DNA of 64,000 bases from Bdellovibrionales bacterium (GTDB lineage: Bacteria; Bdellovibrionota; Bdellovibrionia; Bdellovibrionales; UBA1609). The stretch spans positions 1,088,001-1,152,000 of the forward strand of contig OZ241329.1 of assembly GCA_965199825.1 (NCBI GenBank). Reading direction: 5' to 3'. The notes beneath the pieces are model-generated. The model was not told the DNA's origin, made no database searches, and saw nothing but the letters and a program-made list of their open reading frames with translations. Both the position numbers and the translations under genes were made by a program. Positions 8,534-38,788 of this stretch are shown piece after piece. The first letter of the stretch is position 1, and each line of letters opens with the position of its first letter.

Positions 8534-9643
8534 TTATTTATCTGTGGGTGGGTTTAAAAGATTCGTTTCGGTTATCGGCTCTTCAATATTTAAAACGTTT
8601 AGAGTTCTTGTTAGATAATCAGTGCACAAACGCGCTCCAATCTTTATCAGGTCTTTCGACAAAGTGACTGAACGCGACAACACCGGATTTGTGACCTGCG
8701 CATGTTGAATCGCAATTTCAACCGTGGGCTTTAATATTTTTGTAGGGATTTCTGCCGCAATATGAGTTTGAGCGTTTGAGCGGCCTAGACGTATTTGTCG
8801 CAGCTCCCAAAGTTCATCAACCTTGGTGTGAGAGCTGCGAAGCTCCCATTCTCTTTGAGGCATCTTGGCGTTGGGCTCTTTATAAAGATTAAACCAATGA
8901 AGGGTGTTTGGATCTTTGTCCCAATTGCTCATCCTCCAAAAAAGATTCCATTGGATTTGGCGAGCGAAATGAGGATGCTCGCTATAAAGCTCATCAATAA
9001 ACAGATCCATAAACTCCAATCCGAGTGCTGGATATTTTCGGGTACGCAAAGGTTTGCCATTGTTGCGTGCAAACCATTGCCCTTGATACTCATCATATTC
9101 TGGCCGGTAGTTGTTTAGATTGCGAAGAAAAGTGGATTCGTCCTCGACCCACGCGAGAGGCAAATTTAATTTTTTGGCGAGGCGATTTTCGGCGCGAGCA
9201 ATGATGTCGGCAACATGCAACGACCATTCTTGATTTGTTTGGTCGATCGCACTGACTTCAATCAATCGTTGGCGAGTTTTAGGATTTTGCATGCGGGCCT
9301 CATATTCTGCCACGCTGTAATATTCAGGACGAATTTGTCGAAGAAGATCAGGATTTGCAGCCAGCTGAATTTCGACCTTTTTTAAGAAATCGGTAAAACA
9401 AAAATTCGGTAAAATTCTAAGGTCGATATTTTGTCTGGTAAGAAGATCAAGAAAATTTCGTTCCGATGCGAGCTCCGCAGTGCGATCAGCAAGATAAGTC
9501 GAGGCTTGTTGAGGTGAGATTAAAACATGTGATGAAATGACAACGGCTGCGCTGCCAGCAAGAACCTGCCGGCGTGAGAGTTCGATAGCTTCAACTTTTA
9601 AAAAAAAGAGTAGTAAAAACAAAACTTTTCCCCACCAGAACAT
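8534..9643 (-). CDS. Secreted hypothetical protein with a twin-arginine-like motif after the signal peptide
   Basis: Probable start ATG 9643: MFWWGKVLFLLLFFLKVEA|IELSRRQVLAGSAAVVI; RLCTDYL near the C-terminus. Confidence 0.65.
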   Translation of the reverse strand: MFWWGKVLFLLLFFLKVEAIELSRRQVLAGSAAVVISSHVLISPQQASTYLADRTAELASERNFLDLLTRQNIDLRILPNFCFTDFLKKVEIQLAANPDLLRQIRPEYYSVAEYEARMQNPKTRQRLIEVSAIDQTNQEWSLHVADIIARAENRLAKKLNLPLAWVEDESTFLRNLNNYRPEYDEYQGQWFARNNGKPLRTRKYPALGLEFMDLFIDELYSEHPHFARQIQWNLFWRMSNWDKDPNTLHWFNLYKEPNAKMPQREWELRSSHTKVDELWELRQIRLGRSNAQTHIAAEIPTKILKPTVEIAIQHAQVTNPVLSRSVTLSKDLIKIGARLCTDYLTRTLNVLNIEEPITETNLLNPPTDK

Positions 9644-9684
9644 TGAGAGGAAGTTGCAGTAATTCAATTTGAGATTCAAATCAA

Positions 9685-12600
9685 TTAGCGTTTTTTATTT
9701 TTGCCGTAGAGGTCTTTCATCGCTTGAAAAATCGATCCTTCATCAGGATTTAATTGGGTAAAATCAAACCAGCTTATTTGATTGCTGAGATCACGGATAG
9801 CTTGCGAAAATTCGCCCGTACCCCACGTTCCGCTTGACCACTCAACATAGCCCATATGCTGGACGATTTCTGAGAGAGAATTCATCGCATTGATTGTTGC
9901 TGCAGTATCAAAGGATCCACTATCGCCAGCTCCATAAACAAATTTGTTAGAGTTTTGATATTTTTGGTCGGCCAAGATTTCGCCGGCTTTGATGTATCCT
10001 TTTGAATCTGTATTCCCACCGCCTAAAAATGTGTCCCAGATTTTAGGCTCAAAATACTCATAAGCATTGTCGTCAAATCCAACAAATCTCACATCCACAT
10101 CTTTATACTTCGCGCGAATAAAGCTCACGATTTGATAAATTAACTGCTTCACCCTTTGCTGAGGAAGGCCCTTCATGCTTCCAGTCAAATCTAAAACAAA
10201 AACAACCACCGCCGACATTTCGGGATGAGGAATGATCTCACGAGATCGAATAAAATATTCTTCCATGGGCATCGTTTTAAATCCGAGTTTCATAATCCTA
10301 CGGATTTCCCCAATTCGATTTTGAGGCGGCGAACTGTTTGGCTCCATTTTGTCTCGAGCAAGACCCCACATGAAAGCTTCTTCGGCTGTTCTATCCATTA
10401 CCATTGGATCGCCTTCTCGTTGAACCGAGCCGGCACGCGAATCATCCATAATAAAGCTTTTATCTCCAATTGGACGGAGATTTGGTAGCTCAAGCTCCTG
10501 GTGAAGAAGCTTGCCCCATTCTTCAAGGGGGATCTCAACTTCAGATGGATCTTTACCAGCACCGTCGAACTTGTCTGGTTTTTCTTCTGATTCTTTTACT
10601 TCATCCGCATCCTTCTCGGCAGATTCATCGTCGGATTTTTCTGCTTCATCTTCCGATTTTTCTTGTGAGCTTTTTCCTTTTTTACCTGACTTTTTATCAT
10701 CAACCAGATCTCCAGGAATATGAGTACCGGTACCAAGTTCAACCCCATCATCTTGATCGATAGGACCGTTCTTATCGTAGTCATCATCAACGGGGGCAGG
10801 CGGCAAATCTTTAATTTTTTGTTGTCGTGCTGAAAGGTCCAAAGAAAATTCAGGTATGATCGGAAGAACTCGAAGCGCCACGCCTTTTGCAGTTGTGCGA
10901 ATGCCTTGTCCCTTTTCTAATGCGCGACGAATTGCCCGAGGGATCCGAACCTCTAAAGATTTAGCCAACTCCACCATTGCCGCCGCGGCGGTTGGCGAAT
11001 GTGAAATGGTTGAGGTTGCGGGTTCAACAACGCTGCTCACTATCGCTGCAACTGCATCTTTGTTTCTTGCTTCAAAAATTTTAAGTAAATCATCGTTCAA
11101 CGAAGAGTCGAGATCCTCTCTGTAATAGTCGATTGCTGCTTTACTGAGTTTGGTGAGATCTTCATACATTTTTCCAGAAACCGGATCAGTAACGATCGCA
11201 TTTCCAGCAGGATCGACAGTGATACGAATAGGGAAAGTGGAAATTTCAGCGGGTGGCGGAGGTGGACCAAAAAATGTGGCAAAATGTTTTGGTGGAGGAA
11301 CACCCCATGCTGAAGATCCTATGGTGTCGAGCGAAACTTGCTTTTTCCATAGTTTAGCAAAAACAAAAAGTGTTTGGGCCGCCGTAATTCGAGCTAAAGG
11401 AATGTCTTCAAACACTTCATGTTTATATAAAACTTCTGTGCCACCCAAATGCTGCTCGTCGTACAAATGAATTCGCGGGACCTGAAGTGGGCGGTAGGCA
11501 ATCTGCCGCGCAATGAATTTTAGGATGCGCTCATGATTATTAAAATTAGAAAGTATAATTTTCTTCTCTTTATATTCGGTATTGCCAACGGGTACGTCGT
11601 CGATTTCTGCTTTACGCTTTAATACTAATTTGTTTCGAGCAATCCAATTACGATCAAATGCTTGACGAATAAATTTTGTGTTATCCGATTGCTCAATCAT
11701 TGGCATAAGCACTTGAGTGACAAACTTTCGATCGCGCTCAAATGGAGTAAATTCTTTGAGTTCCGGTTTTAAAATAAATTGAGTCCACATATTCCAACAT
11801 CCGTTAAGGCCCACCCAATAAGGATTTTTAAGGTCTGGAATCGCAACGTTTTGAATAAGATTGGCAAGATCAACGATGTCATTAGAGGTGATATATTTAG
11901 AATGTCGCGCAATTAAAAATTGCGAAAAGGTTGCAACACCTTCGTTTAAAATCTTTGTATGCATCATAAATCCATCAGATCTACGAATTTGCTCGATCAA
12001 ATCGGCCATTTGATGAACCCAAGGAGGAAAATCCTTGGGCATATTTCCAACATAATATTGTATTGCGCTTGGGGTTGGTGATGTAGGCTTTCTGATTCCT
12101 TTTTTTGGATCAGGATCTTTGATGTTTTTAAAACTTTCGGGCGATTGATAGCTGCCCATCGCAAGGTCTTGCATGTGTGCCATGCTCAGCAGAAGTTGAT
12201 AATAGTATTTTACAAACTCTGGATCATACTTATCGTAGAGCTCAGACATCAGATGTGAAAGTTTGAGGCTCGCAACCACAGCATCGCCACCACGGACGGC
12301 TTGATACATAGATGTCCCAGCCACAAGATTATGTCCAAGCACGTGCATCATCACAGAAATATTATGACTGACTTTTGTATTGTCACGATAGAAGCCTCGG
12401 CAGGTTGGGCAGCCTGGAGTTACAAATTCTAAAACACCCGCTAAGGTTTTGCGGCCGTCTAAAATCTTTTTTCCTTCAATCTCATGTGGAGCGGCGTACC
12501 CTCCGACGGAAGCAAGCTCAGAAATTTGCTCCGAGCTTGCAAAATTTAATTGATGTGGTGGAAGGTTGAATCCAAGATTAAGCGCGATTTGGGTGACATG

Positions 12601-12777
12601 TTCTAAGGCGGCTTTCAATTCAGGTATTGAATGAGCATCGCGCCCGCTTGGAATAATTTGGTCGCTGGCATTTTTGTCTAATATGGCTTCGCACACGCGC
12701 TGTCGAAGTTGATGGTCATCTAAATAATTTGGTTCCACGGCATAAACAAAACTTAAAAATAAAAGAAACACGATCAT
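9685..12777 (-). CDS. SpoVR(YcgB)-YeaH(DUF444, vWA) fusion protein with N-terminal signal peptide
   Basis: SpoVR motifs: LGFNLPP, LEFVTPG..., HVLGH, TKILNEG, NPYWVG, VPRI. YeaH motifs: EVEIPLEEW..LHQELELPNL, AVVVFVLDLTGSM (MIDAS-like), KYKDVDVRFV. N-terminus MIVFLLFLSFVYA. Confidence 0.85.
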   Translation of the reverse strand: MIVFLLFLSFVYAVEPNYLDDHQLRQRVCEAILDKNASDQIIPSGRDAHSIPELKAALEHVTQIALNLGFNLPPHQLNFASSEQISELASVGGYAAPHEIEGKKILDGRKTLAGVLEFVTPGCPTCRGFYRDNTKVSHNISVMMHVLGHNLVAGTSMYQAVRGGDAVVASLKLSHLMSELYDKYDPEFVKYYYQLLLSMAHMQDLAMGSYQSPESFKNIKDPDPKKGIRKPTSPTPSAIQYYVGNMPKDFPPWVHQMADLIEQIRRSDGFMMHTKILNEGVATFSQFLIARHSKYITSNDIVDLANLIQNVAIPDLKNPYWVGLNGCWNMWTQFILKPELKEFTPFERDRKFVTQVLMPMIEQSDNTKFIRQAFDRNWIARNKLVLKRKAEIDDVPVGNTEYKEKKIILSNFNNHERILKFIARQIAYRPLQVPRIHLYDEQHLGGTEVLYKHEVFEDIPLARITAAQTLFVFAKLWKKQVSLDTIGSSAWGVPPPKHFATFFGPPPPPAEISTFPIRITVDPAGNAIVTDPVSGKMYEDLTKLSKAAIDYYREDLDSSLNDDLLKIFEARNKDAVAAIVSSVVEPATSTISHSPTAAAAMVELAKSLEVRIPRAIRRALEKGQGIRTTAKGVALRVLPIIPEFSLDLSARQQKIKDLPPAPVDDDYDKNGPIDQDDGVELGTGTHIPGDLVDDKKSGKKGKSSQEKSEDEAEKSDDESAEKDADEVKESEEKPDKFDGAGKDPSEVEIPLEEWGKLLHQELELPNLRPIGDKSFIMDDSRAGSVQREGDPMVMDRTAEEAFMWGLARDKMEPNSSPPQNRIGEIRRIMKLGFKTMPMEEYFIRSREIIPHPEMSAVVVFVLDLTGSMKGLPQQRVKQLIYQIVSFIRAKYKDVDVRFVGFDDNAYEYFEPKIWDTFLGGGNTDSKGYIKAGEILADQKYQNSNKFVYGAGDSGSFDTAATINAMNSLSEIVQHMGYVEWSSGTWGTGEFSQAIRDLSNQISWFDFTQLNPDEGSIFQAMKDLYGKNKKR

Positions 12778-12783
12778 CGATGT

Positions 12784-15700
12784 TTATCCTCCGTGAACTA
12801 TAAGCATTTTTTCGCAAGAATCGTTAAAGCGTGTATTCACCCGTTCCATGGCCTCATTGCTCAAGGCTTTTCGGGAATCAGAAGTGATGAGCATCTGATC
12901 TAAAAGATCGATTGTTCGTGGGCGAAGTAACGAGTTGCGATCTTCAAATAAAAAATCTTGTAGTCCTGAAAGTTGACCAATCACCATATTTTGAGCGGAG
13001 GTACTTAAAGCTTTTATGACAAACTCGTTAAGATTCGACCAAGGGAGAGTTACGATTGCGCGGTCAATGATCCACAAGAACATTCTGTTGGCGTCGTAAA
13101 CTCCTAAACTTTCAACATTTGCACCGGTCTGCTTTTCTGCAATGGATTCACTCTGTGTCTCAATTAAATAGGATTGAAGCAGTTCGGCAAGCTTGCGAAA
13201 GATGTCTTTAGTGCGATCGGTTTTTTGAGCCGACATCGAGCGTGCCCAGATATCGTCTGCTGGGAAAGATTTAAGTGACCCGAGCTGAAAGCGCTCAGTT
13301 AAGTAGACAGCCAATAAGTCTTTTACTTTTTCGACATATAAAGAATTGAGCTGTGAACGCGTGCGTTTTTGTGAGGACACATAGCTACTATCCCAAAGCG
13401 AAAGATATTGATTAAAATCATAGGACGAGAAAATTTTAGGAAAATAACTCTCCCTCGGTGCAATTTCATAAATACGATTCAAAAGATCTTTTCTTTCGAG
13501 TTCGGAGTGAGCACCAAAATGCAATGGATCTAAATTTATTTGGGATAGCGGTATGTTCGAATGAAGGCGAACAACGTGATCATAAATAGCCTGTTCGCTC
13601 CACGCTAATAAATTGCTTTGCCGAATTTCATCACCCGAAAAAAATGGATGAAACCGCAAGGCCCGTGCAAATTCCTCATAAATTTTTGTCCTAAAGGACT
13701 GAGCCACCAATTTTAAAAATTGCAGTTGGCCTTCAATACTTTCGACTACAGGCACGACCGCTGAATTCGCAGCTATGAAATCAATGATTCCCTGCTCACC
13801 ACTGACGTTGGCCGATTTGCTGCCACCGAGATGGCTATTATTTGCTGAAGTCGCAGGGACCACAATACGGAGCGGAGGTGCGTTGGTCGATCCCGCTCGA
13901 TCTATTAAAGCTGCAATTCCCCCGGCAGCACCCGACAAAAATGTTCGCGCATCCATTCCTTGAAATTCATCAACAATTTTCTGAACACTTTCATTCGACA
14001 CCAGGAGCAGTTGACCCTGAGCAAAAATATCTCGGGCTTGTCGCACCATTGCGCCAGTCAGCGCTGGGCCTTTGGCTTCAGCAGGAAATTCATCCATGTT
14101 TTTGATCAAGGTCCAACGTGTAAAGAAAGATTTGTCTGTACTCGCTGCATCCTCGCCGCCAAGTGAGGCGACTGCAATTTCAACAGGGGTTGCTGCTCCA
14201 TACGTTGAATTTTTGAATTGTTCGATTTTTTTCTTATTGTCGGTGGGATTAAAAGTTAAAAATAGTACGATATTGCGTGAAGGAAACTCAACGATCTCTC
14301 CTTTTGAATTGTTCACTTTTACGATGCCACCTTCGGCATCAAAAAGCTGTCGCACTCGTTGTAATACCTTTGTTCGCACTTTGGGATTAGGACCCTGGGC
14401 ATCATCTATAAGAATCCACATTCGATTTCCGTTTGGACCTGATAGAGCATCTTCAAAACGGGCGAGAGCTTTATCCACATTAATAAGCCCATTGCCGCTT
14501 TCACTGTCTGTAAGCTTGGTGACCTGAAGTATAAACGCCTGTGCAGAAAGATTATTTGAAGAGCCAAGCTCTTGAGTCCAATCATACATCTGTAAGCCCA
14601 GGGTCTTCACCAGCGATGTAAACATCGACGTCTTTCCAGTACCCGTCTCGCCAAATAAAACAACTGAGGCTGGTATATTGCGAGCCTCGATTCGACGAGT
14701 TTGCCCTTTAATGGTTTCAATCACCTGTCGGGTTAAAGTGAAATCTCCTGCGTACTCACCAATGTTATGAACATCGAGCAAAATTTCTTTTGAAAACAAA
14801 TGATTGAGCCAATCATCTGGAGCCAAATTTTCGCGCTGGAGTGATCCGCCAAAGACTTGAGCCAAAACTTTTTCGATAAAAATCCGGTCGATGAGTTTTC
14901 GGTTACGAGTTTGATCATCTTGCAGCAAGGTTAATCGCATTTTGTGCAGAACATCTGCTAAGGCCATCAAATGATTTTTATTTTGATCAGTCGACAGAGA
15001 GTTGACGCGTGAAATGAGATAATCAGTGACGCTATCTTGAGCTTCAAGTTGGGTGAGTGAGGCATCATCTGACCGGATCGACTTTGCGCTAAACGTATAA
15101 TCGCGACGTTGAACTTCTCGCGAATTAAAAATTTCTTTTATAAGCCCTTGTTGAGCTTCGATGTTTGGAGCGGTTATAGTAACCAACTCAAAATGGCTTA
15201 CGAGCCCATAACTCGATTCAAGTCGTGCTTGTTCTTTTATCAGATTTGCCCACTCTGATTCTGATGCAAGAATAATTGTCGAATACAATTGGGGTTGGGC
15301 TTGAGTCGCAAATTTTTCGATATCTATTCTGCGACCTTCAGTCGCCACCCAGTACAGAGCATGCGGAGGAGTTTTTGAGCTCTCGCCATGAGCACCAGAA
15401 AAAACTTTTTCAGCCTTAGCATCGTCACTGTATTGATCATCATTAATGTGAAACACCGTTGAACTGTCATTTTCACCAGAGCTGATGCGATTCATAGCTA
15501 TAAGGTCCGCAGCATCCACTAGCAGTATCGCATTTTTTCTGGGTGCTTCGTCTTCAATTCCATTGAGCAACTGGATCAAGTCGGCTTGATCGGAAGGGTC
15601 GGTGTTGCGAAAGACGAAAGTTTCAATGTCCCTATTTCTGCGTCCAAAGATATTTCTTTCTCCCTTTGATTGAAGGTAATGAGACCAAAGCATTTTTGAA

Positions 15701-18135
15701 AAATAAGTTTTGAGTTCGTCGGGTACTAATAAAACTTTATGGTGATAACGTCGAACGTGTTGATCGCCTGCGGTTTCGGCGGCAACAAAATCGAGCTGAT
15801 CAATAAAACTCGGAAACAGCATTCCCTTTAGGTTAGACACACCCTTTTCTAGAATATCCTTAATCTGTTTTATCGCTTTCAAATGATTTCGAATGATTCG
15901 CCAATTATATGAAAAGGGCTGCATCTTTGAATTTTTATCAGGCTGTACTTTAGCATCGTAATAGGACAAAAATTTAAGTCTTTTTGGGCCAATCATTTTA
16001 CCTGGATTAATGGTTCGACCATCAGCCAAATTAATAGCTTGGTAATTCAAATCGTCATAATCGAGGTCGGGTGTTAAATTGAAATAAGCCTGACCATCTT
16101 GATCGTAAATGATTCTATCGTAGAGCTCTTTAATCGAACCTGTTTCAGGCAGCTTAATTGACTCTCTAGGAGTTGCTTTAGCGGTATTCCGCTTTTCGGC
16201 TTCGCCGAAGCCTATAAAAAAAGTGGTTGCCGTGGTCGTTTTCTGTCCTGAGGCATCGGTCAATGCTCGAAAAACGGTAAAATTCGAAGTCGTCTTCAAT
16301 CCGGGAATCAAACCGATATAAGTAATATCTTTGATGTCTCCGTGAAATGAAATCTCGTTAGCTTGAGGTGGAAAGAAATCAGCCGCATCGCTCACGCAAA
16401 TCACATTGGCGGTGGAAGAATTTTTACCATCCAAAAAATTTTTATCCGAAACAGTAACTGTGATCCTGATTTTACCAAAAGCTAAAGTCTCTAGAAGTTC
16501 CTCGGCCCAAACTATATTTGCTTTATAGGGAAGTGCCTCACCAGGAACATATATGTTTGAATTTGTACTCCCAATATATAAACCGGTCTTTTTCTTGGTC
16601 GCATTTTTTTTGTCATTATAGAGTTTGTAGACAATCTTATCGCCAATCGTAGTGGTTTCTAATGGTCTAACGTATTGATGCTGGAGACCCGAAGAATTAC
16701 TTTTGGTTAAATCGATGTGCAAAATTGTATTGTCATAAGATTGAACATATCCCTCGGCCGTCAGCTGCTCCATCTGCGGCGTGATCTCATCAAAAAGAAT
16801 GTTGTCTTCGTCTCCATGGTGAGTACGAAAGCTCAGTTCATTCATCGGATAAAAATAGCTATTTATTTTGATTGGAGGTTCGAGTTGAAAATAATTAGAA
16901 ATATTTCGAAATTTATAGAGGGTAGTAGTTTTTTGATTTGCTGTGGTTTTTTGTGAAATCAAAAGAAGATGCTCAGTTTCCTTCGGCTCAAAGAGAACAA
17001 AGGAGAGTTGATCAAGGTGAATATTTCTATCGAAAGTTAAAATTTTATCAATTTTGCCGCTAACGACAGACACAAAAAAAAGAGAATTGTTAATAGATAT
17101 CAGCGCATGGTTGCTATTGCTGCTTGAGGTAAAAATAAGCGGGGTATTTTCTGTGAAGTGTCGGTCTACGCGACCGGGCATAAGCTCTGATGTGTGATCC
17201 GATTTGACCTCAACGTAGTCATCACCAAAAGGATCGAAATATTGTGTAATTTTGAATTCTTTTAAGCTGAAGATCTTTTCAGAAGGAAGAGTAATGAGCC
17301 TTTTCTTGCCGCTTTTTAAGTCGTATCCGGGCTGAGATTCTCGCGAACTTAACAACGAATTTTGACCTGCTCGAAGATCAGATTTCCATTTTTTTAATAC
17401 CGCAGGGTCTTTGGCGTCTTCTCGAGACAAACTGCGACTGAGTGAATCAGATAGTGCAATCGTACCATGATCTTTTGATTTGACCAGAAGCCGTGAAAGG
17501 GCTGGTGATGATCTAAATGTGTAGTCTAAAACGAGAGGTCTGTTTTCAAGTTCGATATTTGGATCTGAAGTAATTTTAGGATATTTGAGATTAACAAAAA
17601 AAGTAAGACCATCTCCGCGAATCGATGGATAACGCAGCGAAAAAATAAGAACATGATTATTTTCATTTTCTATTTTGCTTACCGAATACGAAACGTCATC
17701 AAGATTTCTTATCGCCGGAACTTCAACATCCTCGTTGGTGACTGGATCAAATAATTTCACTCCATCATGGGGACTTAGCTGTATAAATGTTTTTGGATCA
17801 GCAGGATTGGTATAGACCGAATAAAAAGTGAGATATCCATCTAAGATTGCCAACGAGTCATATCGTGCAGAGGCTTCGCCGAGCTGAAACTCATCAAAAA
17901 TAGGACCTCTAAAACGATCAATTAAAAGTTGACCAAACAAAATGGGTTGATATGAAGTACTGTCTTTAGCTCGGACATAGAGTCCCGCCTGCCGTTGAGA
18001 CGATCCGTCTGGATCAGACACAACAGCGAGGTAAGGCGTTGCTCCCACTTGATTGGAGTGAATCACTTCCTCGCGAGTTTGTGCCAACAATTGAGATGTG
18101 CTCAACAATAAAAGAGATGTAAGAAGCCCTTTCAA
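12784..18135 (-). CDS. Giant Clp/Hsp100-like AAA+ protein (1783 aa) with signal peptide, large N-terminal domain, degenerate NBD1 and recognisable NBD2
   Basis: Walker A GETGTGKT (14629-14652), Walker B WILIDD, and QLFD..G...VEF..RNIVLFLTFN resemble ClpB NBD2. The upstream IILASESEW...HFELVTITAPNIE resembles the NBD1 tail. N-terminus MKGLLTSLLLLSTSQLLA. Confidence 0.7.
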   Translation of the reverse strand: MKGLLTSLLLLSTSQLLAQTREEVIHSNQVGATPYLAVVSDPDGSSQRQAGLYVRAKDSTSYQPILFGQLLIDRFRGPIFDEFQLGEASARYDSLAILDGYLTFYSVYTNPADPKTFIQLSPHDGVKLFDPVTNEDVEVPAIRNLDDVSYSVSKIENENNHVLIFSLRYPSIRGDGLTFFVNLKYPKITSDPNIELENRPLVLDYTFRSSPALSRLLVKSKDHGTIALSDSLSRSLSREDAKDPAVLKKWKSDLRAGQNSLLSSRESQPGYDLKSGKKRLITLPSEKIFSLKEFKITQYFDPFGDDYVEVKSDHTSELMPGRVDRHFTENTPLIFTSSSNSNHALISINNSLFFVSVVSGKIDKILTFDRNIHLDQLSFVLFEPKETEHLLLISQKTTANQKTTTLYKFRNISNYFQLEPPIKINSYFYPMNELSFRTHHGDEDNILFDEITPQMEQLTAEGYVQSYDNTILHIDLTKSNSSGLQHQYVRPLETTTIGDKIVYKLYNDKKNATKKKTGLYIGSTNSNIYVPGEALPYKANIVWAEELLETLAFGKIRITVTVSDKNFLDGKNSSTANVICVSDAADFFPPQANEISFHGDIKDITYIGLIPGLKTTSNFTVFRALTDASGQKTTTATTFFIGFGEAEKRNTAKATPRESIKLPETGSIKELYDRIIYDQDGQAYFNLTPDLDYDDLNYQAINLADGRTINPGKMIGPKRLKFLSYYDAKVQPDKNSKMQPFSYNWRIIRNHLKAIKQIKDILEKGVSNLKGMLFPSFIDQLDFVAAETAGDQHVRRYHHKVLLVPDELKTYFSKMLWSHYLQSKGERNIFGRRNRDIETFVFRNTDPSDQADLIQLLNGIEDEAPRKNAILLVDAADLIAMNRISSGENDSSTVFHINDDQYSDDAKAEKVFSGAHGESSKTPPHALYWVATEGRRIDIEKFATQAQPQLYSTIILASESEWANLIKEQARLESSYGLVSHFELVTITAPNIEAQQGLIKEIFNSREVQRRDYTFSAKSIRSDDASLTQLEAQDSVTDYLISRVNSLSTDQNKNHLMALADVLHKMRLTLLQDDQTRNRKLIDRIFIEKVLAQVFGGSLQRENLAPDDWLNHLFSKEILLDVHNIGEYAGDFTLTRQVIETIKGQTRRIEARNIPASVVLFGETGTGKTSMFTSLVKTLGLQMYDWTQELGSSNNLSAQAFILQVTKLTDSESGNGLINVDKALARFEDALSGPNGNRMWILIDDAQGPNPKVRTKVLQRVRQLFDAEGGIVKVNNSKGEIVEFPSRNIVLFLTFNPTDNKKKIEQFKNSTYGAATPVEIAVASLGGEDAASTDKSFFTRWTLIKNMDEFPAEAKGPALTGAMVRQARDIFAQGQLLLVSNESVQKIVDEFQGMDARTFLSGAAGGIAALIDRAGSTNAPPLRIVVPATSANNSHLGGSKSANVSGEQGIIDFIAANSAVVPVVESIEGQLQFLKLVAQSFRTKIYEEFARALRFHPFFSGDEIRQSNLLAWSEQAIYDHVVRLHSNIPLSQINLDPLHFGAHSELERKDLLNRIYEIAPRESYFPKIFSSYDFNQYLSLWDSSYVSSQKRTRSQLNSLYVEKVKDLLAVYLTERFQLGSLKSFPADDIWARSMSAQKTDRTKDIFRKLAELLQSYLIETQSESIAEKQTGANVESLGVYDANRMFLWIIDRAIVTLPWSNLNEFVIKALSTSAQNMVIGQLSGLQDFLFEDRNSLLRPRTIDLLDQMLITSDSRKALSNEAMERVNTRFNDSCEKMLIVHGG

Positions 18136-18144
18136 AATTTCCCC

Positions 18145-20547
18145 TTATTGTGTTGGTTTTCGATCTTTGAGTTGACGTTTTATCACTTCATTTTGTGAGA
18201 AAATTCCGAGAGCCTCCTCCGCACAATGCGGGCAATAGCCACGGCGGAGCAAACCAGACATTATTTTTCCGTAGACAACAGTATCTTGGCTGTCACCAAC
18301 ACCGCCCTTATAGCGTTGAACAACATCCATCAACTCTGAGGACTCACTCGCTTGTTGAGCGAAAACAGCTTGGATCGCAGTTAGCAGCGGTTGATAGTAA
18401 GTCGACTCAACGGTCCGTCCTGGCAGAGTCAATGCAAATTGGGCCATTGCAAGAGTGTTGATATCAAGTCGTTCTGAATGAATTTCTAGATATTTTTGTC
18501 TGATTTTTTCTAGCCTTAAAATTCGTATTGGCTTTCTTTGCTGAGTCAACGGGTCGAGATATTCGGTAGCCGAGGGATCAGCACCAAGCGCACTGATCTC
18601 AAGAGTTGTTTCGTCATAAGCTCTTTTTATTAAAGACTCTTCACTTGCTGCACTCGCCAAAACATCGTTCTCAATTTTCGGAATCGTAAGTCGTGACGAG
18701 ACCAAATTGGAATAGTGAATCCAAAGCTGACGGGTCTTTTCATCATTGCCGTACTCAAGTTTTTTACCGTCTGAGAGCATCATCTTAAAAGTGTCCTTCG
18801 CAATTTTTATTGTGAGATCATGATGATTCTCGGGGGCTCTGGCTGCCGCAACACAAGCTGCTAACCACCCACTGACATCTCGCTGCGAAAGGCCGTGATT
18901 GCCGTCCTGTAAAAGTAAACTGAGCTCATTGAGTTCTTTTTCTTCGATGCTGTTTTCAATTGGCATTTCACCGGTTAAATAACGAGATCGAGTGATGGGA
19001 TCTCTAAAAAGTGCAGAGTTAATCACACTGGAGTTTTGTTTTTTTGAAGCTTCTTCGTTGCTAAAATTTTGGCGAGTAATACTCACCACCGTGGACATAA
19101 ACAAAAGTGCCCTTGGGCTGACGTGGATTCGATCTTCTCCTTCATCAAGATAAAGACTATAGCGATCTTCGGTTCCAAGAATAGGTTTGTCGGCCTCAAT
19201 CAATGGAAAAATTTGATTCAAATCAGCCTTTACGATTTTGTTTTCACCCGTGAGCGGTTGAACAAACACACTTTTAAACATCAGCAACATTGTTTTTGCG
19301 ATCTGATGAGGTTGTATCAGCCAATAAAATGGAATCAGCTGAAATCGATCGCGATGAGCGTGACCTTTTGAATCAGACATAGCGGCGTCAAAATTTGCGG
19401 TATTTGTGGCCATAATCATTAATAAATCAAGAGGCCACGCGGGTGCTGCGCCGATTTTAATTTCACGGGACTCAAGACTTCTCAAAAACATATCCCTTAA
19501 GGCGTCGGCGTTCCGTAAAAATTCATCCCCAAACCAGGGGCCGCCGTTTGAAGCAGGGATCTGACCCATAAAATATGAAAATGGCATCTCGGGGCCATAG
19601 GTAAGAAAAATAGCAGGATTTTTGCTCGCAAAGATCGCTCCCTGATCATAGTCGCGACCTTGAGCATCGAAAATATTGTTATTGTTTTCTCCAAAAAATT
19701 TACGGCGGAGAACAATATGCCGACCGAGAGTCTCAACAATTTCTGCAACGGTAAGATCGCTCTTCTTTTTTAATTGCTCGCTTGCCATTAACTTTTCGTA
19801 GATAAACAAATTTTGTGGATCAGGTTTGAGGAGAGGTTTCGGATTAGATCCGGCGAGGCGCATCACTTCGGGTGCTGCCATCTCTATGATTTTGGATCGA
19901 ATAGCGTCTGGCAGCATCACCAAGGGGGATTGATGAAGACCGGCGCGAACAACTTCACCTTCTTGAATGAATTCAAGTCCTGGTATTGCATGCAAATTAT
20001 GCCACTCGGGCTCATAGAAAGCGTAACCGGGGAGATTAAAACTCGCATATTTTAAAGCGGCTTGTAGGATTGTGAGGATTAGCGTTTTTCCGGTTCCGTG
20101 CGGTCCTAAAAACATTGCAACCCGCGGTGCACCTCGCACTGAATCTTTGATTGATTCCACAAATTCTGCGATGCGATCCTCTTGACCCACGATGGATTGG
20201 TAATCATTAAGGACACTCGGTGTAGAAAATAGATTATAGACTTTGAGTCGACCTTTGCCGCGAATATTTTTATATTCCCAGCCGGCGTAATTGATCACAC
20301 TCATCACACGCTGAGCGGCGCTCATTGCGAGCATTGGATTTTGAACAACTAAATTTTGTTTGGGATCACTTGCGAAGAGCTCAATAAAACTTCTTTTTTC
20401 AAACTTCGCGATCAGGTAAGAATCATGGCCGCTAAAATCGCCAAGGATTGTTTCGCAGTCCTGAGCCTCGGCGGTAAAACCAAATATGAAACAAGACAGT
20501 GCAATACCCAACCGAACTAAAATTCCCCCCACGTCAATTCCCCCCAA
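18145..20547 (-). CDS. prkA: PrkA/YeaG-family AAA+ ATPase/Ser kinase with N-terminal signal peptide
   Basis: SAAQRV, Walker A GPHGTGKT (20083-20106), HQSPL, ASNGG..FGDEF, DLLMIMATN, RDR, HVSPRAL, GLSQR, C-terminal GYCPHCA. Alternative GTG start at 20532. Signal-like ALSCFIFGFTAEA. Confidence 0.85.
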   Translation of the reverse strand: MGGIDVGGILVRLGIALSCFIFGFTAEAQDCETILGDFSGHDSYLIAKFEKRSFIELFASDPKQNLVVQNPMLAMSAAQRVMSVINYAGWEYKNIRGKGRLKVYNLFSTPSVLNDYQSIVGQEDRIAEFVESIKDSVRGAPRVAMFLGPHGTGKTLILTILQAALKYASFNLPGYAFYEPEWHNLHAIPGLEFIQEGEVVRAGLHQSPLVMLPDAIRSKIIEMAAPEVMRLAGSNPKPLLKPDPQNLFIYEKLMASEQLKKKSDLTVAEIVETLGRHIVLRRKFFGENNNNIFDAQGRDYDQGAIFASKNPAIFLTYGPEMPFSYFMGQIPASNGGPWFGDEFLRNADALRDMFLRSLESREIKIGAAPAWPLDLLMIMATNTANFDAAMSDSKGHAHRDRFQLIPFYWLIQPHQIAKTMLLMFKSVFVQPLTGENKIVKADLNQIFPLIEADKPILGTEDRYSLYLDEGEDRIHVSPRALLFMSTVVSITRQNFSNEEASKKQNSSVINSALFRDPITRSRYLTGEMPIENSIEEKELNELSLLLQDGNHGLSQRDVSGWLAACVAAARAPENHHDLTIKIAKDTFKMMLSDGKKLEYGNDEKTRQLWIHYSNLVSSRLTIPKIENDVLASAASEESLIKRAYDETTLEISALGADPSATEYLDPLTQQRKPIRILRLEKIRQKYLEIHSERLDINTLAMAQFALTLPGRTVESTYYQPLLTAIQAVFAQQASESSELMDVVQRYKGGVGDSQDTVVYGKIMSGLLRRGYCPHCAEEALGIFSQNEVIKRQLKDRKPTQ

Positions 20548-25171: not shown

Positions 25172-25436
25172 TATTACAGTGGCTCACGCCCATGTTCTTA
25201 AACGTCTTCGCAAGTCGTCCAACTTGAGTCAAAAAGAATTGGCTGATCGATGCAATCTTGACCGGACTTTTATTTCGCTTCTTGAACGAGGCGAAAGGCA
25301 ACCTTCGCTCACAACACTATTTGCAGTCGCAAAAGTTTTAAAGGTGAGCCCATCGGTTATTGTCACTCAAATCGAGAACTTTATTCGAAGAGGGTTACGC
25401 AAAGTCAGCAAGCCCTCACGAGTGGGTAGGAACTAA
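25164..25436 (+). CDS. XRE-family HTH transcriptional regulator
   Basis: LSQKELADRCNLDRTFISLLERGERQPSL. Confidence 0.9.
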   Translation: MSDITVAHAHVLKRLRKSSNLSQKELADRCNLDRTFISLLERGERQPSLTTLFAVAKVLKVSPSVIVTQIENFIRRGLRKVSKPSRVGRN

Positions 25437-27067
25437 GGCGTCTTTGTTTTAGATGTTTTTATTATGGGCTTAGGAACTTTTGACTTCGGCATTTTCTTTC
25501 CGGCGGTGATGTACTCATCAATGATCGGACTGTGTCGAGTAGGCGATCGAGCCAGTACGCCGTAGTAACTTGAGAGTGGAAGTTGTGGGACCAAATCTAC
25601 GTCGGAAGTTTTGTCATCCAATATGACGATTCCGCCCGCCATAATCATATATTCACGAGTGCGCTGTGCGGGTTTGCCACCCCTTACCTTCGGTACAGTA
25701 ATCGCGCGCCGAAAAATTGTAGAGATCTCGACGTAGTTTAATAGAATTATATTATCGGCCATAGCAGAGGCTTTTAAACTGCTGCTGATTTGCGAGACCC
25801 CTAACAATTCAGGGCATTCGTAATTGACCAAAGATTCCATCATTCGATACTTAAATAACGAGGTCAGCGCAAAAATAAAATCGTGAGTTTCTTCGTGGTG
25901 AGCGCTTTGGTATGTTGCAAGAGAATCAATCACAATTCGGGTGATATCTTTTTGCTCGATAATATTTTTTATACGATAAAAATGCTCATCCAAATCAATC
26001 TCCATAGGAGTATTATAATAAATTGTGACATCGCCACTTTTCACATGGGTGCTTAACTTTAATTTAAGTTCGTCGGCGTTGCGGCAAATTTGCTCGGGAT
26101 GTTCGTCTAACGTGACCAACAAGCCTTTTTTACCCTGCGCAACTCCAGCTGCCAAAAACTCCATTCCTAATATGCTTTTGCCTGTACCTGAAATTCCAAC
26201 ACATAAGGTGGTTGAGCCTTCAAGAACACCGCCACCGAGCATCTCATCAAGGGTAGGATTGCAAAAAGAACTTTTTTTAATCGAAGTCTTTTGTGAAAAT
26301 TTTTGCGATACACCTGCCGAGATTCTTGGGAAAACCTCAATCCCTTTTTGGGGAAATATTTTATAGGAATGGGTTCCCGAAATAAAATTTTGCCCGCGTG
26401 ATTTTACAATTTCTAATGTTCTTATGGAACTTCGACGTTGCACGCTATTGCGCAAGCTAATCACCGTATCGCAAAGAAATTGACTCTCTTCGATCGCATT
26501 CTTAGCCATCGTCTCGGCAACAAAGACTGGCATCACCCCCATACGCTCAAAAGTATCAATTATCATATGTAAAGATTCACGGAAGGATGGCCCCTGACGG
26601 GCTTCGAGATACTCTTTTAGAGGAGTTAAATTATCAATCACCACCCGACGGGCATTGATTTTTTTTATCTCAGTTGTAACAAAATTTGTTGAGAGCTGAA
26701 GATTATCAAAAATTTGTGCTGGGGTGACCTTTAAGATCTTCATTTTATTTTGATTTTCTAACTTTTGACAATCCAGTCCAAATCCAAGCGCATCTTGCTT
26801 GATCTTTTCCACCGAAGTCTCAAGGCTTAAAATTAATCCTGCTTCGTTGTGGAGTGAAGCCCCACGATAAATAAATTCAAGAGCAAAAATGGTTTTACCA
26901 ATGCCGGGGCTTCCTTCAATAATGACCGCATTGCCTCTCACAATGCCGCCGTAAACGATTTGGTCAAAACCAAGGATCCCGCTAGGAACGAGGGCTTCTG
27001 AATTTTTGTTTATATCGATCTCCAAAGTGCCACCTATCTGTATCTCGGTTTTACATAATTGCATCAA
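25433..27067 (-). CDS. KaiC-like double-domain RecA-superfamily ATPase
   Basis: Two P-loops (GSPGIGKT, GISGTGKS), VVIDN/IVIDS Walker B, VKSRG/PKVRG motifs. Exact start uncertain. Confidence 0.85.
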   Translation of the reverse strand: MMQLCKTEIQIGGTLEIDINKNSEALVPSGILGFDQIVYGGIVRGNAVIIEGSPGIGKTIFALEFIYRGASLHNEAGLILSLETSVEKIKQDALGFGLDCQKLENQNKMKILKVTPAQIFDNLQLSTNFVTTEIKKINARRVVIDNLTPLKEYLEARQGPSFRESLHMIIDTFERMGVMPVFVAETMAKNAIEESQFLCDTVISLRNSVQRRSSIRTLEIVKSRGQNFISGTHSYKIFPQKGIEVFPRISAGVSQKFSQKTSIKKSSFCNPTLDEMLGGGVLEGSTTLCVGISGTGKSILGMEFLAAGVAQGKKGLLVTLDEHPEQICRNADELKLKLSTHVKSGDVTIYYNTPMEIDLDEHFYRIKNIIEQKDITRIVIDSLATYQSAHHEETHDFIFALTSLFKYRMMESLVNYECPELLGVSQISSSLKASAMADNIILLNYVEISTIFRRAITVPKVRGGKPAQRTREYMIMAGGIVILDDKTSDVDLVPQLPLSSYYGVLARSPTRHSPIIDEYITAGKKMPKSKVPKPIIKTSKTKTP

Positions 27068-27117: not shown

Positions 27118-28563
27118 TTGAAAAATTATAAATTTATCCTTCTCATTTTTTTGTTTGCGGTTCAATCAGCACGCGGGCAGTACGGTGCGATCGCGACATC
27201 GCCCGGAACTTACGAATATATTGATCGGTCAAAAATCGAGCGAAATAGAATCGATTGGAGCATGCTTGTTGAAAAACAAGATCATGACACTTACGAAAAA
27301 ACAGTTTCCGAGAGCGAAGCGGCTTACAAGGATCTTTATCAAAGTTATGCTAAACTAAAAGAGTTGAGCATTCAGTCGACCATCAACAAACTGCCGATCT
27401 CGGCCGAAGAATTGGCTTCAGCCGTATTTAATTTTCGGATGGCTCGCGACGTGTTTCATCAAAAAATTGCAGGCCTCGAAGTTTTTTCGGAAGTTTGGGG
27501 CGGCCGCGCAAATCTCAATCCCGACCAAAAACAAGCGCTTCCAGCTGAGCAACAAAATGCAATTGAATATGTTTATTCAAAAGGTGCGGTGAACCTTGGC
27601 TTATTTGCCAAAACATATGATGCCGGTATCCGAGCGATGGTCGACCAGGCAGCAGCTCTTACCTACAGATACAATGACGGGATGCAAGCCGTAGATACCA
27701 TTGCGGGCGAGGGTCTTATGGATCCCATGACTCACGAAACTCCGCGCAGCATTTTGGCCAACCTCGAAATTTTTCGAAAAAACGCCGAACTCACTTTTCA
27801 AGATACCGAAAATCTGTCGCGCTTACCAAAAATGGTTGCGTATCAAATGGCGCAATTTATCAATGCTAACGATCTGCATTTTTATTGGCAAAATGATTTG
27901 CAAAAACAAGGTCGAAGCGACTGGCTTGAGGCTTTGGAATTTAAGTTTAGACTGACCAAATATGTTCGTGCTGCAAACTGTATGTCTGTCGGGGTTGTGG
28001 CGCTCAGTCTGCCGCCGCTTGAGTCTTTTGACCTAGGCTACCTGGTGCGTGGAGCAAGACAAAAAGTTCGAATCGTTCAGAAGGCAGAATTTGATGAGGT
28101 TGCGATTCGCGCGACTCTTAATCGGCTTGATGAATTGTTTCGCTCGCTTCAATCCCAAAATGGTGAATTTAATGATGTCGGTGGAGTGATGGGTTATATA
28201 AACAAAATCAATTCCACTTTGACCTGGAAAAATGAAGTTGAGGCCTATCTTGGAATATTGACTTTTCTGCGTGAAGATTACCGTGACGAACTCGATCTTA
28301 TTACCGATCCCATTGGACGATGCGATCGTGTGCGACAACGTTACTATGCTCGATACAAAACCTTTCGCGATGGTTTCGCCGCTCGTGCGGATGCTTATTT
28401 CGTAACCGGAGGAAGTTCAACCGATCCCACAATGCAAGCGTTTGCGGTTGCTGGAAAAGTGATTTTAACAAAAGGCCAATATTTAAAAGAATATCGCAAA
28501 CTGTTGAGCGACCATCCTGAATTTTCGCCTTCAGGAAAAATGTTGGATGAAAGCCTTCATTAA
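27118..28563 (+). CDS. Secreted, largely helical hypothetical protein
   Basis: 481 aa with signal peptide; overlaps the next gene. Confidence 0.75.
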   Translation: MKNYKFILLIFLFAVQSARGQYGAIATSPGTYEYIDRSKIERNRIDWSMLVEKQDHDTYEKTVSESEAAYKDLYQSYAKLKELSIQSTINKLPISAEELASAVFNFRMARDVFHQKIAGLEVFSEVWGGRANLNPDQKQALPAEQQNAIEYVYSKGAVNLGLFAKTYDAGIRAMVDQAAALTYRYNDGMQAVDTIAGEGLMDPMTHETPRSILANLEIFRKNAELTFQDTENLSRLPKMVAYQMAQFINANDLHFYWQNDLQKQGRSDWLEALEFKFRLTKYVRAANCMSVGVVALSLPPLESFDLGYLVRGARQKVRIVQKAEFDEVAIRATLNRLDELFRSLQSQNGEFNDVGGVMGYINKINSTLTWKNEVEAYLGILTFLREDYRDELDLITDPIGRCDRVRQRYYARYKTFRDGFAARADAYFVTGGSSTDPTMQAFAVAGKVILTKGQYLKEYRKLLSDHPEFSPSGKMLDESLH

Positions 28564-29839
28564 GCTTTTTGCTTTTTGTTTTTTAATTCAAGCCCAAGCT
28601 TATACAAACAAGCCCGCAAGCAGCCGATATCTGCCGAGTGGCCACTGGTTGACGTGTTGGGGCGGAAGCGATTACGCGATCCGAAAAGATCCGCACTTTA
28701 ACAAAAACTCTTCCGAAGACGAGGTTGCAAGCTACATTCCCCGTTTTACGGGATCTTATCCATTTGAAGTCAAAGACACCTGGATCGAACTCATTACGCA
28801 CAGTGGAACAGATTGTGGACACTGCGGACAAACTTGTACCACCACAAAACAGGGCACAACTTGTGTTTGCAACAGCTGCTCGTGGCAGACCAAAGAGACT
28901 GCCTACCGACATTGGTCAAACCAAAAAGTCAATTGGGAGGTTCATTGGGCTCAAGATCCCAATTATCGCGCAATGAGAAAAAACTGGCTGGCTCAAGGTC
29001 AACCCCAAATCGGACGGTCGGTTAAAGATTTAGATAAACTTTTATTGTTTGATCCCGAAAGACCACTCGAATATTTCTTGTTCCCTGGTGAAGCCGAGAC
29101 GATTGAGATCTCCAATGGTTGGGGAGGAACCAAGCTCACTCCTACCGTAAGTATCCAAAAAGCTCGGCACGAATATAGTATTCATGTGAATACAAACGTC
29201 GGCCCCAACGCCGACTGTGATGACAGAGACATTCAAGTGTCAGCGTCTGTTCGGACTGGAAAGCGCATCCGAGGCCCAACACCAAATAGCATTGAATTTC
29301 GAAAGGGATGGGCGGTTGGACCACAAAATGAAAATGGCGAGTTTACCCAAGAACCCGCAGAGTTTTTGCTCACCGATATTTCGGCTGAAAGATATGAGGC
29401 CCAAAATATTTTTGATAATTATAAAGATTCACGCATTCAGGTTGAACTGTGGCAGCTCAACCGGGTGTTGTGGGCGATCGATGGCCGGGTGAGCTCAAAG
29501 TTTCAGGTGCAAGACAATCTCAGCATATTAAAATGGACCGATGATGGTTTAACACCGCCCGTTGCGACGTACGACATTAAGGCCGATGATCTTTATCGAA
29601 CACGATGGTTCGAAGCGCCATTTCATCTCACATACAATGAAACTTACGAGGTGTGTACGAAGGTCATCCGCAATAACAATATTTATTATAACACCAAGAT
29701 GTTTTATTTTTTTGATCAATGGTCTGAATCAAATTGTTCGTTGTTTGTTTACAATCCTCCCGATCAAAACGACTTAAGAACTTGGGGTCGTAAAAAACGT
29801 GATTTTTTATCGAGACTTGTAGGGTTTGGTTTTTTTTAA
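28547..29839 (+). CDS. Secreted Cys-rich, beta-rich hypothetical protein
   Basis: Signal peptide ending AQA; CGHCGQTC...CVCNSC cluster. Confidence 0.75.
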   Translation: MKAFIKLFAFCFLIQAQAYTNKPASSRYLPSGHWLTCWGGSDYAIRKDPHFNKNSSEDEVASYIPRFTGSYPFEVKDTWIELITHSGTDCGHCGQTCTTTKQGTTCVCNSCSWQTKETAYRHWSNQKVNWEVHWAQDPNYRAMRKNWLAQGQPQIGRSVKDLDKLLLFDPERPLEYFLFPGEAETIEISNGWGGTKLTPTVSIQKARHEYSIHVNTNVGPNADCDDRDIQVSASVRTGKRIRGPTPNSIEFRKGWAVGPQNENGEFTQEPAEFLLTDISAERYEAQNIFDNYKDSRIQVELWQLNRVLWAIDGRVSSKFQVQDNLSILKWTDDGLTPPVATYDIKADDLYRTRWFEAPFHLTYNETYEVCTKVIRNNNIYYNTKMFYFFDQWSESNCSLFVYNPPDQNDLRTWGRKKRDFLSRLVGFGFF

Positions 29840-29842
29840 GAG

Positions 29843-30967
29843 GTGATCCACATGATCCTGTTTTATCTTTTTTCGTTTTGGATTAATGCAGCTCCACTCA
29901 GCGATCTGCAAACCGACAATTTGTGTCGTGCTCAAGATCTTGCGGCGGACCCTCTCCATAAAAATTCTCTGATCTCGAATTCTCCTTGGAAAGATTTGAT
30001 CTCTGAAAATTCTCTGTTTGATCCTTTGAAAATGTCTCAAACTCTTTCTCTATCTCATCTTGTTCGCGATGGGCTCACCTCTGAACACATCGTAAACATG
30101 TTGGCCGACGGATTTAAAAAAATACGCCTGAACGAGATGGAAGCCATCGAGCGGGGCGAAATCAAACCGATTGTTGAAGGCCGATCTTATACCCATCAAG
30201 AACTCAAACGGCGCAAAAAAACCTTGGATGATTTTTATAAAAAATATGTCGAGCCGGTTTTGCAGAATACCTATCGCTATTATTTAAGTGTTCATACACG
30301 GCGAGAAGAATTGCGTAAAAATGCGGGCGCACCACAGGATATCCAAAAAGCGGTTTCACTCGTAAATGATCAGGTCGATTTTTTAAATAAAAATTTAAAA
30401 CGTATCTCACCCTCACTCGTGGAGAAATTTGGAGAAATCCATACGGCAACCGCTGAGAATTTGACCTTGAGCTATCGTGATGGCTTCGTGGTTAAGATTC
30501 AGTTTGGTGATGTAACTTTTTATCCCCGTATGATCGCCAACCAAATTTTGGGAGAGGACGATTATTTTTTGCGTGGGATGAATGAATGGGTCAAATACAC
30601 AAAGGCACAAGCTCACAGTGGCTCAGCATCTGCGGCGCAGGCGGCAGAACTTGCACTTCAACATTTTGAAGGAGCCCAAAAAGTCCATAAGATCATGTCT
30701 TCAGTTTCTGAAAGCGATCTTGTGCAATTGATGGGACTGTTCTTTGAACTCAATAAAAAAAATATTCCGCAATGCGACCGGGTCATTGCTAAGCTCAACG
30801 AACGGCTTAAAAAGAAGTTGGGAGATAACAAAACTTCGCTCCGATTGGGTCCAGCCGATCGTTTAGAAGTTGAGAGCATGGCAAAGGATCTGGTTTTTTA
30901 TCAGGACATATTCAAAGTTTTTGCTGAGGCCGCTAGTCTTGCAAATCCGCCACTGTCTAAGCGCTGA
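29843..30967 (+). CDS. Secreted helical hypothetical protein
   Basis: Signal peptide ending WINA; starts 3 nt after the previous stop. Confidence 0.75.
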   Translation: MIHMILFYLFSFWINAAPLSDLQTDNLCRAQDLAADPLHKNSLISNSPWKDLISENSLFDPLKMSQTLSLSHLVRDGLTSEHIVNMLADGFKKIRLNEMEAIERGEIKPIVEGRSYTHQELKRRKKTLDDFYKKYVEPVLQNTYRYYLSVHTRREELRKNAGAPQDIQKAVSLVNDQVDFLNKNLKRISPSLVEKFGEIHTATAENLTLSYRDGFVVKIQFGDVTFYPRMIANQILGEDDYFLRGMNEWVKYTKAQAHSGSASAAQAAELALQHFEGAQKVHKIMSSVSESDLVQLMGLFFELNKKNIPQCDRVIAKLNERLKKKLGDNKTSLRLGPADRLEVESMAKDLVFYQDIFKVFAEAASLANPPLSKR

Positions 30968-30983
30968 CCAGATTCTTGAACTT

Positions 30984-31010
30984 TCAAGTCTAAAGTCTAA
31001 ACCCCGATAA
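30984..31010 (+). promoter_or_regulatory. Sigma28 (FliA)-like promoter
   Basis: TCAA-N15-CCCGATAA, ~30 nt before the 31040 start. Confidence 0.6.
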
Positions 31011-38775: not shown

Positions 38776-38788
38776 AGGTACTTCGTCG

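Follow-up and report, generated by a model that had tools for sequence, protein, structure and literature searches.

A predicted exported PrkA, Clp-like and SpoVR-YeaH operon in Bdellovibrionota with a possible role in proteolysis inside prey

Organization of the operon

A window of 64,000 nucleotides (C1:1088001-1152000) from the near-complete 2.84-Mb genome of a Bdellovibrionales bacterium was shown to contain an operon encoding a divergent PrkA/YeaG-like ATPase, a giant protein derived from Clp/Hsp100 ATPases and a fusion of SpoVR and YeaH. All three proteins start with a predicted export leader and carry a Cys-x-x-x-Leu motif, here called the tag. As stated in a preliminary description of this DNA, the genes are tightly spaced: three open reading frames (ORFs) are located on the minus strand at 18145-20547, 12784-18135 and 9685-12777, with intergenic gaps of 9 and 6 nucleotides (nt). 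The start of the prkA-like gene is most likely the GTG at 20532, which gives a protein of 795 amino acids (database gene call P0024) and is preceded by a sequence similar to a Shine-Dalgarno (SD) site, GGGGGA; with this start, the leader lies at the very N-terminus. A second read set from the same study, which was not independently sampled, covers the whole stretch at 99% or more in short contigs, and the sequence is therefore regarded as real. Scans for promoters and terminators gave results at chance level. The features are as follows.

18145..20532, minus strand: divergent PrkA/YeaG (SpdA) AAA+ ATPase, 795 amino acids from the GTG
20464..20532, minus strand: predicted Sec leader of the PrkA-like protein, residues 1-23
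20443..20457, minus strand: Cys-x-x-x-Leu tag directly after the PrkA-like leader
20083..20106, minus strand: Walker A of the PrkA-like protein, Lys invariant in 42/42 rows
12784..18135, minus strand: giant Clp/Hsp100-derived protein, 1,783 amino acids
18082..18135, minus strand: predicted Sec leader of the giant, residues 1-18
15901..18081, minus strand: all-beta N-terminal region of the giant, residues 19-745, of variable length, with propeller-blade-like sheets in the model
14629..14652, minus strand: Walker A of the second AAA ring of the giant
12802..12816, minus strand: C-terminal Cys-x-x-x-Leu tag of the giant
9685..12777, minus strand: SpoVR-YeaH fusion, 1,030 amino acids
12739..12777, minus strand: short predicted Sec leader of the fusion, residues 1-13
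12679..12693, minus strand: Cys-x-x-x-Leu tag of the fusion, on a low-confidence N-terminal helix
11308..12666, minus strand: SpoVR domain with the predicted metal site, H145, H149, E279 and Y320 invariant in 66/66 rows
9688..10224, minus strand: YeaH vWA domain with an intact metal ion-dependent adhesion site (MIDAS; D863, S867, D952), by alignment and fold matches

Family assignment and conserved residues

The family identities proposed in the preliminary description were borne out by profile matches above the cut-offs for the PrkA-like protein and the fusion, and by ClpC as the best solved match of the giant. PF06798 was found in the PrkA-like protein with 29.5 bits (cut-off 25), and among 23 homologues PF08298 was present in 19, PF06798 in 16 and a weak match to bpMoxR in 6. 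The closest solved relative was PDB 9xip (E 5e-39). The PrkA-like profile is matched by three entries, 9xip, 9xiq and 9xir, which together comprise 30 chains of a 692-residue "serine protein kinase"; a literature search found no paper behind them. In an alignment of 42 rows, K149 (Walker A), N377 (sensor 1) and R396 (arginine finger) were invariant and the Walker B residues D336/E337 were kept at 90% or more. A complex prediction with PrkA-like residues and the YeaH vWA part scored 0.00 and gave no usable answer.

In the fusion, SpoVR (PF04293, 40.3 bits) is followed by DUF444/YeaH (PF04285, 74.8 bits), the cut-off being 27 for both, and the protein was modelled as one compact structure with a predicted local distance difference test score (pLDDT) of 85 and a predicted template modelling score (pTM) of 0.81. 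The vWA fold was recognized with Z 18.1 and a root mean square deviation of 2.8 over 160 residues, NorD and CobT being among the matches. Result lists of fold searches with the whole fusion were filled by vWA matches, and an atlas search with the SpoVR part gave no usable match. The SpoVR domain aligned with canonical SpoVR over 413 columns (hhalign probability 100%), including the HxxGH and NEG motifs, the former being of the HVxGH or HGxGH type and never HE in the variants printed. Only ten columns were invariant in an alignment of 66 rows, among them H145, H149, E279, Y320 and the MIDAS residues. The His, His and Glu lie on helices in the predicted model and hint at a metal site of the zincin-like kind. 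When 3,646 candidates were searched for shorter, split versions of the fusion, one contig-end fragment was obtained.

The giant consists of the leader, a beta-rich N-region, a degenerate AAA ring 1, an intact AAA ring 2, a helical tail and the C-terminal tag. Pfam gave a weak AAA match only; the best 18 solved matches were all Clp/Hsp100 proteins, ClpC having E 1.3e-7. The alignment of ring 2 with D2 of ClpC extended from Walker A to the small domain, and traces of D1 were detected. In 37 aligned sequences, the Walker A of ring 1 was lost in all 37, and in ring 2 G1162 and K1168 (Walker A, 37/37), a DD-type Walker B, sensor 1 and the arginine finger were invariant or nearly so. Thus, the earlier statement that Walker A motifs are intact holds for the PrkA-like protein and for ring 2 of the giant, but not for ring 1, and the SpoVR-YeaH fusion is not an ATPase. 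Residues 19-745 were modelled as a confident all-beta fold (pLDDT 84) matching beta-propellers in part only (Z 9.2 or less), and this region varied strongly in length and sequence among relatives; an atlas search with it gave no usable match (best 0.83). A profile search gave 221 clusters at E 1e-10 or better, and 114 of the 150 listed had at least 1,700 residues. At 50% identity the giants make up over 110 clusters of full-length proteins, and by sequence comparison they are a separate family. They share D2 homology with class I Clp/Hsp100 proteins (ClpA/B/C), from which they differ by loss of the D1 Walker A, and thereby of a second active AAA ring, by the DD Walker B, by replacement of the N-domain with 700-1,040 residues of beta structure, and by the long helical tail and the export leader.

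Predicted export leaders

The leaders ending in TAEA, QLLA and FVYA that had been described for the three proteins were found on all of them. When homologues were screened with a heuristic criterion (an uncharged hydrophobic 9-mer near the N-terminus with a mean hydropathy of at least 2), leaders were present in 35/38 PrkA-like proteins, 35/36 giants and 45/49 fusions; the canonical trio reached 1.0 or less on the same scale. Among the full-length giants in the matches listed, a set that overlaps the synteny loci, a hydrophobic 9-mer was found in the first 50 residues of 94/114 representatives compared to 206/3,420 interior windows. True starts downstream of the leaders, named in the preliminary description as a result that would speak against export, were not indicated; the starts were instead placed upstream, an SD-like site and start codon located no later than the hydrophobic stretch being found in 32/35 PrkA-like proteins, 25/35 giants and 42/45 fusions, and in an equal window after the stretch in only 3, 3 and 2. 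In the same order, net charge before the stretch was positive in 33/35, 28/35 and 40/45, negative values being rare or absent, the residues after it were net negative in 22, 23 and 25, and AxA-like sites were present in 29/35, 31/35 and 33/45. By these heuristic measures the leaders have the anatomy of Sec leaders with an N-in/C-out orientation, which would place the mature chains outside the cytoplasm.

The periplasm contains no ATP, and this difficulty would vanish if the leaders were uncleaved anchors or were not translated at all, the module being a tethered paralogue in the producer's own cytoplasm. Two properties fit such an arrangement: the best 19-residue hydropathy of the leaders was borderline (median 1.6-1.7), and the fusion leader in the window has 13 residues and no basic residue. 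However, short leaders of this style are common among the other predicted secreted proteins of the genome, SD sites are located before and not after the leaders, AxA-like sites occur in most homologues, and the charge bias would leave even uncleaved enzymes outside. We therefore consider an anchored cytoplasmic module very improbable.

Distribution, synteny and phylogeny

A separate leaderless prkA-yeaH-spoVR operon, the existence of which the preliminary description had raised as a point to be checked, was found in the same genome at C1:799417-804079. Since this canonical operon is kept alongside, the exported-type locus is an added paralogous system. SpoVR was present in 41/41 phylum genomes and the canonical module in nearly all, and each of five carriers checked had a strong exported-PrkA match in addition to a weaker match of the canonical type. 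The fused form was detected with the fusion profile (E 1e-100 or better) in 38/401 phylum genomes including this one, as counted by hand with about two candidates scored per genome. A pattern scan with one genome per species gave 32 loci, 25 of them in taxa labelled Bdellovibrionota and 7 with vague labels.

Among 49 distinct full-length fusion loci, the order PrkA, giant, fusion was found in 35 (two with PrkA cut at a contig end). PrkA was inverted in one locus and adjoined the fusion without a giant in three, and ten loci, most of them at contig ends, showed the giant upstream but no PrkA. The three genomes lacking the giant at the locus (93-97% complete) had no copy of it at another place that could be found, and since these carry PrkA and the fusion without it, the giant is regarded as accessory. 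Both leaders and synteny were thus kept across genomes labelled Bdellovibrionota, in agreement with the preliminary description. Exported-type homologues had diverged to 25-35% identity with invariant catalytic residues (ATPase, metal, MIDAS). In the part of the flanks viewed, no further gene was conserved next to these three. The fusion was duplicated in tandem in one genome (L010:5948-11537), and two separate complete operons were present in each of two genomes (L088 with L109; L089 with L108).

A tree of SpoVR domains (30 exported, 18 canonical and three from phages) was calculated by a quick method; it contains no cellular outgroup from outside the phylum and gives neither root nor origin. 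A long branch with support 100 set the exported domains apart from the others, and their end branches were much longer than the canonical ones.

The Cys-x-x-x-Leu tag and tagged proteins

The tag was found in all three proteins of the operon. The position described earlier, after the leader, applied to the PrkA-like protein and the fusion, but the tag of the giant is C-terminal instead (C1774). In homologues, Cys-x-x-x-hydrophobic followed the leader in 32/38 PrkA-like proteins and 40/49 fusions and was at the C-terminus in 30/36 giants, as well as in 96/114 full-length giant representatives among the matches listed. The fusion tag lies on an N-terminal helix modelled with low confidence (pLDDT 41-49), as expected of a free signal. 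A pairing of the tag Cys with a CxxC of the SpoVR domain was rejected, as the CxxC pattern was absent in 23/43 tagged homologues. In a subgroup of loci (L021, L030, L035, L042) leaders were kept and Cys tags were mostly absent from the subunits present.

Besides the operon, terminal tags are frequent in this genome: a plain C-x-x-x-L was found in 129/706 leader proteins compared to 41/994 others, and a tag matrix, which was trained on the leader class itself and is therefore partly circular, recognized 124/948 in the leader class compared to 9/994 others and 7/2,856 interior spans. The tagged leader proteins formed 57 clusters, and in 55 of these proteins the tag Cys was the sole Cys of the mature chain. 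From 126 candidates, 104 were scanned against Pfam; excluded were 17 outside the regions used, the three operon proteins and two transporters of the membrane. About nine in ten had no family; of the 11 with a match, four were apparent false positives of the leader heuristic and seven contained a DnaJ domain, an OmpR-type winged helix, an ABC1 kinase, a MutS ATPase, GNAT, PLD or an EEP nuclease/phosphatase. Four of these leader-bearing proteins are listed here.

L048:12708-14369: tagged MutS-type ATPase
L054:16754-18649: tagged ABC1 kinase
L064:4080-5396: tagged DnaJ-domain protein
L053:1079-1801: tagged OmpR-type DNA-binding protein

As a control, 60 of the 82 leader proteins without a tag in these regions were scanned and gave 25 Pfam matches, none of them ATP-dependent or DNA-binding. 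Most were to envelope families; secretin, SurA-type, TonB, trypsin, redoxin and fibre predominated, and four were flavoenzyme false positives. The tagged DnaJ, OmpR-type DNA-binding, ABC1 kinase, MutS ATPase and GNAT proteins have predicted domains of a cytoplasmic type and were counted in favor of delivery into prey. The tag marks out about 124 candidate effectors, most of them unannotated; it is a candidate secretion signal by itself and hints at a further delivery route.

Relation to known modules

The canonical module is linked to protein turnover by two recent studies (this and the other literature cited by accession or DOI is quoted from excerpts). YeaG, renamed SpdA, was reported on genetic grounds to be needed for widespread, largely non-specific cytoplasmic protein turnover in carbon-starved Escherichia coli (PMC13684143); the excerpts of that paper mention neither YeaH nor YcgB. 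Bacillus subtilis PrkA was reported to degrade casein slowly in vitro in an ATP-dependent, PMSF (phenylmethylsulfonyl fluoride)-sensitive manner and not to be a kinase (PMC9512850); SpoVR has no part in this PMSF-sensitive activity. In addition, yeaG, yeaH and ycgB were co-fit in six bacteria (10.1101/072470), and the canonical module of Bdellovibrio bacteriovorus is encoded by bd0228-bd0231 (PMC5430801).

The operon shares with canonical YeaG-YeaH-YcgB the presence of three families in one operon and the ATPase, MIDAS and SpoVR metal residues. It differs in that every subunit has a leader and a tag, whereas the canonical proteins are leaderless with separate YeaH and SpoVR, and in that SpoVR and YeaH are fused in reversed order and a giant Clp-derived gene is inserted. 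With MoxR AAA+/vWA systems (NorQ-NorD, CobT and ternary conflict systems), it has in common an AAA+ protein, a MIDAS-type vWA domain after an acidic linker and a variable third protein. MoxR-vWA systems are cytoplasmic. In MoxR-vWA-beta-propeller systems the third component is a true beta-propeller; for the beta region of the giant, partial blade-like matches (Z 9.2 or less) were obtained. Neither "signal peptide" nor "YeaH" occurs in the excerpts of PMC7159879.

Leaderless clusters of prkA, yeaH and spoVR were found in Thermus phage MN1 and the jumbo Ralstonia phage RsoM2USA, and phiYS40 has at least yeaH and spoVR. These phages share with the operon a divergent copy of the module carried by an invader into the cell it consumes, but the phage genes are leaderless and unfused and their SpoVRs did not group with the exported ones. 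That phages bring the module into hosts was counted in favor of the function proposed below. The clusters in the Thermus phages and RsoM2USA (L232, L233, L234) are divergent and mostly annotated as hypothetical; phage yeaH-spoVR(-prkA) clusters may drive recycling of host proteins.

No description of an exported or fused form of the module was found in the open literature, which leaves subscription papers and supplements outside the scope of this search. The parts are known families; the exported, fused and Clp-augmented module is new, as the preliminary description had proposed. To our knowledge, no exported bacterial multi-subunit AAA+ machine for unfolding or degradation is known.

Possible function

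The three proteins are predicted to leave the cytoplasm, yet the ATP-related residues of the two ATPases are under strong selection, which implies a destination containing ATP. For a predator lineage, the simplest such destination would be the prey cell. Our favored reading, for which we consider the chances to be roughly even, is that the operon, a second and fast-evolving copy of the module joined by a Clp-derived ATPase, encodes an exported ATP-driven proteolysis machine that would work inside prey with prey ATP. Of the effector role in remodelling or degradation proposed earlier, the degradation part is now better founded (PMC13684143, PMC9512850), and delivery to the prey cytoplasm stands as inference.

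The proposed sequence would start with Sec export of the three proteins and cleavage of their leaders, followed by passage into prey through a further machine, which would probably read the tag. There, PrkA rings would assemble in the manner of MoxR-vWA pairs, the vWA domain of YeaH serving as their adaptor, the SpoVR metal site would act as cutting or peptide-binding site, and the giant would be an accessory unfoldase or disaggregase with its variable beta region selecting substrates. The peptides and amino acids released would feed the predator while the prey is disabled. The fullest version, in which a complete protease made from the starvation module and a Clp motor is injected into prey by a two-step, tag-marked secretion with SpoVR as metallopeptidase, is more doubtful and is put forward tentatively. 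As for the route, this genome has four secretins, eight strong matches to ATPases of the type II secretion system (T2SS)/pilus type and one FlhA-type match, the pilus-related ATPases including T2SS, type IV pilus and Tad. Since secretins are present and the markers of type VI and type IV secretion systems (T6SS/T4SS) searched for, VipB and VirB4, were not found in the genome, a secretin-based route is a candidate for delivery. If true, the system would show how predators digest a cytoplasm they never enter, a step for which a 2025 review sees little experimental support (PMC12428579). In reviews, delivery of lytic enzymes from the predator side is treated as proposed and poorly shown (PMC12428579, PMC13689555), and secreted effectors of Bdellovibrionota were predicted in PMC12419801, the excerpts of which do not mention this system. 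Besides, the natural SpoVR-YeaH fusion with its invariant metal site opens YeaG-YeaH-YcgB biochemistry to direct testing.

Several observations weigh against this reading. Oligomeric machines with subunits of 90-200 kDa would have to pass several membranes, and no route for this was found. The carriers are uncultured and their lifestyle is not established, and the fused form was not detected in 363/401 phylum genomes, including 26/26 of genus g21. The leader heuristic also picks flavin-binding N-termini and membrane proteins, and the Walker B of the giant is DD, not DE. SpoVR peptidase activity is offered as a hypothesis only, because the motif is HVxGH and thus has no Glu at the catalytic position of HExxH, and because M1 peptidases were matched only weakly by profile (hhalign probability 16%, E 0.0016). 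Prey of B. bacteriovorus stop transcription 20-25 min after invasion (PMC13689555), and prey ATP may thus be short-lived. Finally, the tag is abundant only in this genome: in 200-kb samples of six other genomes, 0-1 tagged proteins were found among 45-64 leader proteins, whereas this genome has a median of 10 and never fewer than 4.

Two of the six sampled genomes (G232, G225) carry the operon. A tag-rich secretome as regular companion of the operon was not supported, as the samples from these two show none. The tag is thus tied to the operon everywhere, and has either expanded only in some lineages or drifted beyond the matrix.

The same samples bear on an alternative in which the proteins, once exported, act in no cytoplasm at all; their place would be the predator periplasm or the space around the prey into which its ATP leaks, and their role that of a chaperone or a motor for tagged cargo. 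HSP101 of the malaria PTEX exporter would be an analogue for such a translocation motor. This alternative requires the Sec step alone, which is the best-supported step, and the T6SS/T4SS markers were not found; an ATP transport system in B. bacteriovorus also appears as a title in the references of a review (PMC13689555). However, the subunits carry the same tag as the putative cargo, the operon-positive samples have no tag-rich secretome to be moved, the giant is absent in 3/49 loci with no copy elsewhere in those genomes, and tagged DNA-binding and DnaJ proteins fit a cytoplasm better. Work outside any cytoplasm is thus considered unlikely.

Delivery into prey could also serve a switch rather than proteolysis, a few specific targets being remodelled or the prey YeaG-YeaH-YcgB being mimicked so that the prey becomes starved and dormant. 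A switch would fit the usual action of MoxR-vWA pairs, which is to remodel specific clients, the missing HExxH Glu of the SpoVR site, and the strong variation of the substrate-side beta region in length and sequence; mutant phenotypes of the canonical trio vary by species and were interpreted as signalling (10.1101/072470). On the other side, YeaG-dependent loss in E. coli is largely non-specific (PMC13684143), the added Clp-derived ATPase suits bulk unfolding, and the high divergence from the canonical proteins speaks against mimicry via host partners. We assign a low probability to the switch, similar to that of work outside any cytoplasm.

Neighboring genes

Located 5 nt downstream of the operon (8534-9679, minus strand), an ORF encodes a protein with a Sec-type leader followed directly by a twin-arginine (Tat)-like motif, a Cys-x-x-x-Leu near the C-terminus and no Pfam match. 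The same nested arrangement of Sec-type leader and Tat-like motif was also found in C1:659948-661327 and C1:2458546-2460027, and could indicate a second export step through the Tat system of the prey. Elsewhere in the window, a KaiC-like ATPase (25433-27067) adjoins four genes without Pfam match that are predicted to be exported (27118-31819). A Tad/Flp pilus locus followed by an RHS-repeat protein was found at 35282-43576, containing CpaB, a secretin, a pilus ATPase that has a ParA-like domain fused to it, and TadB.

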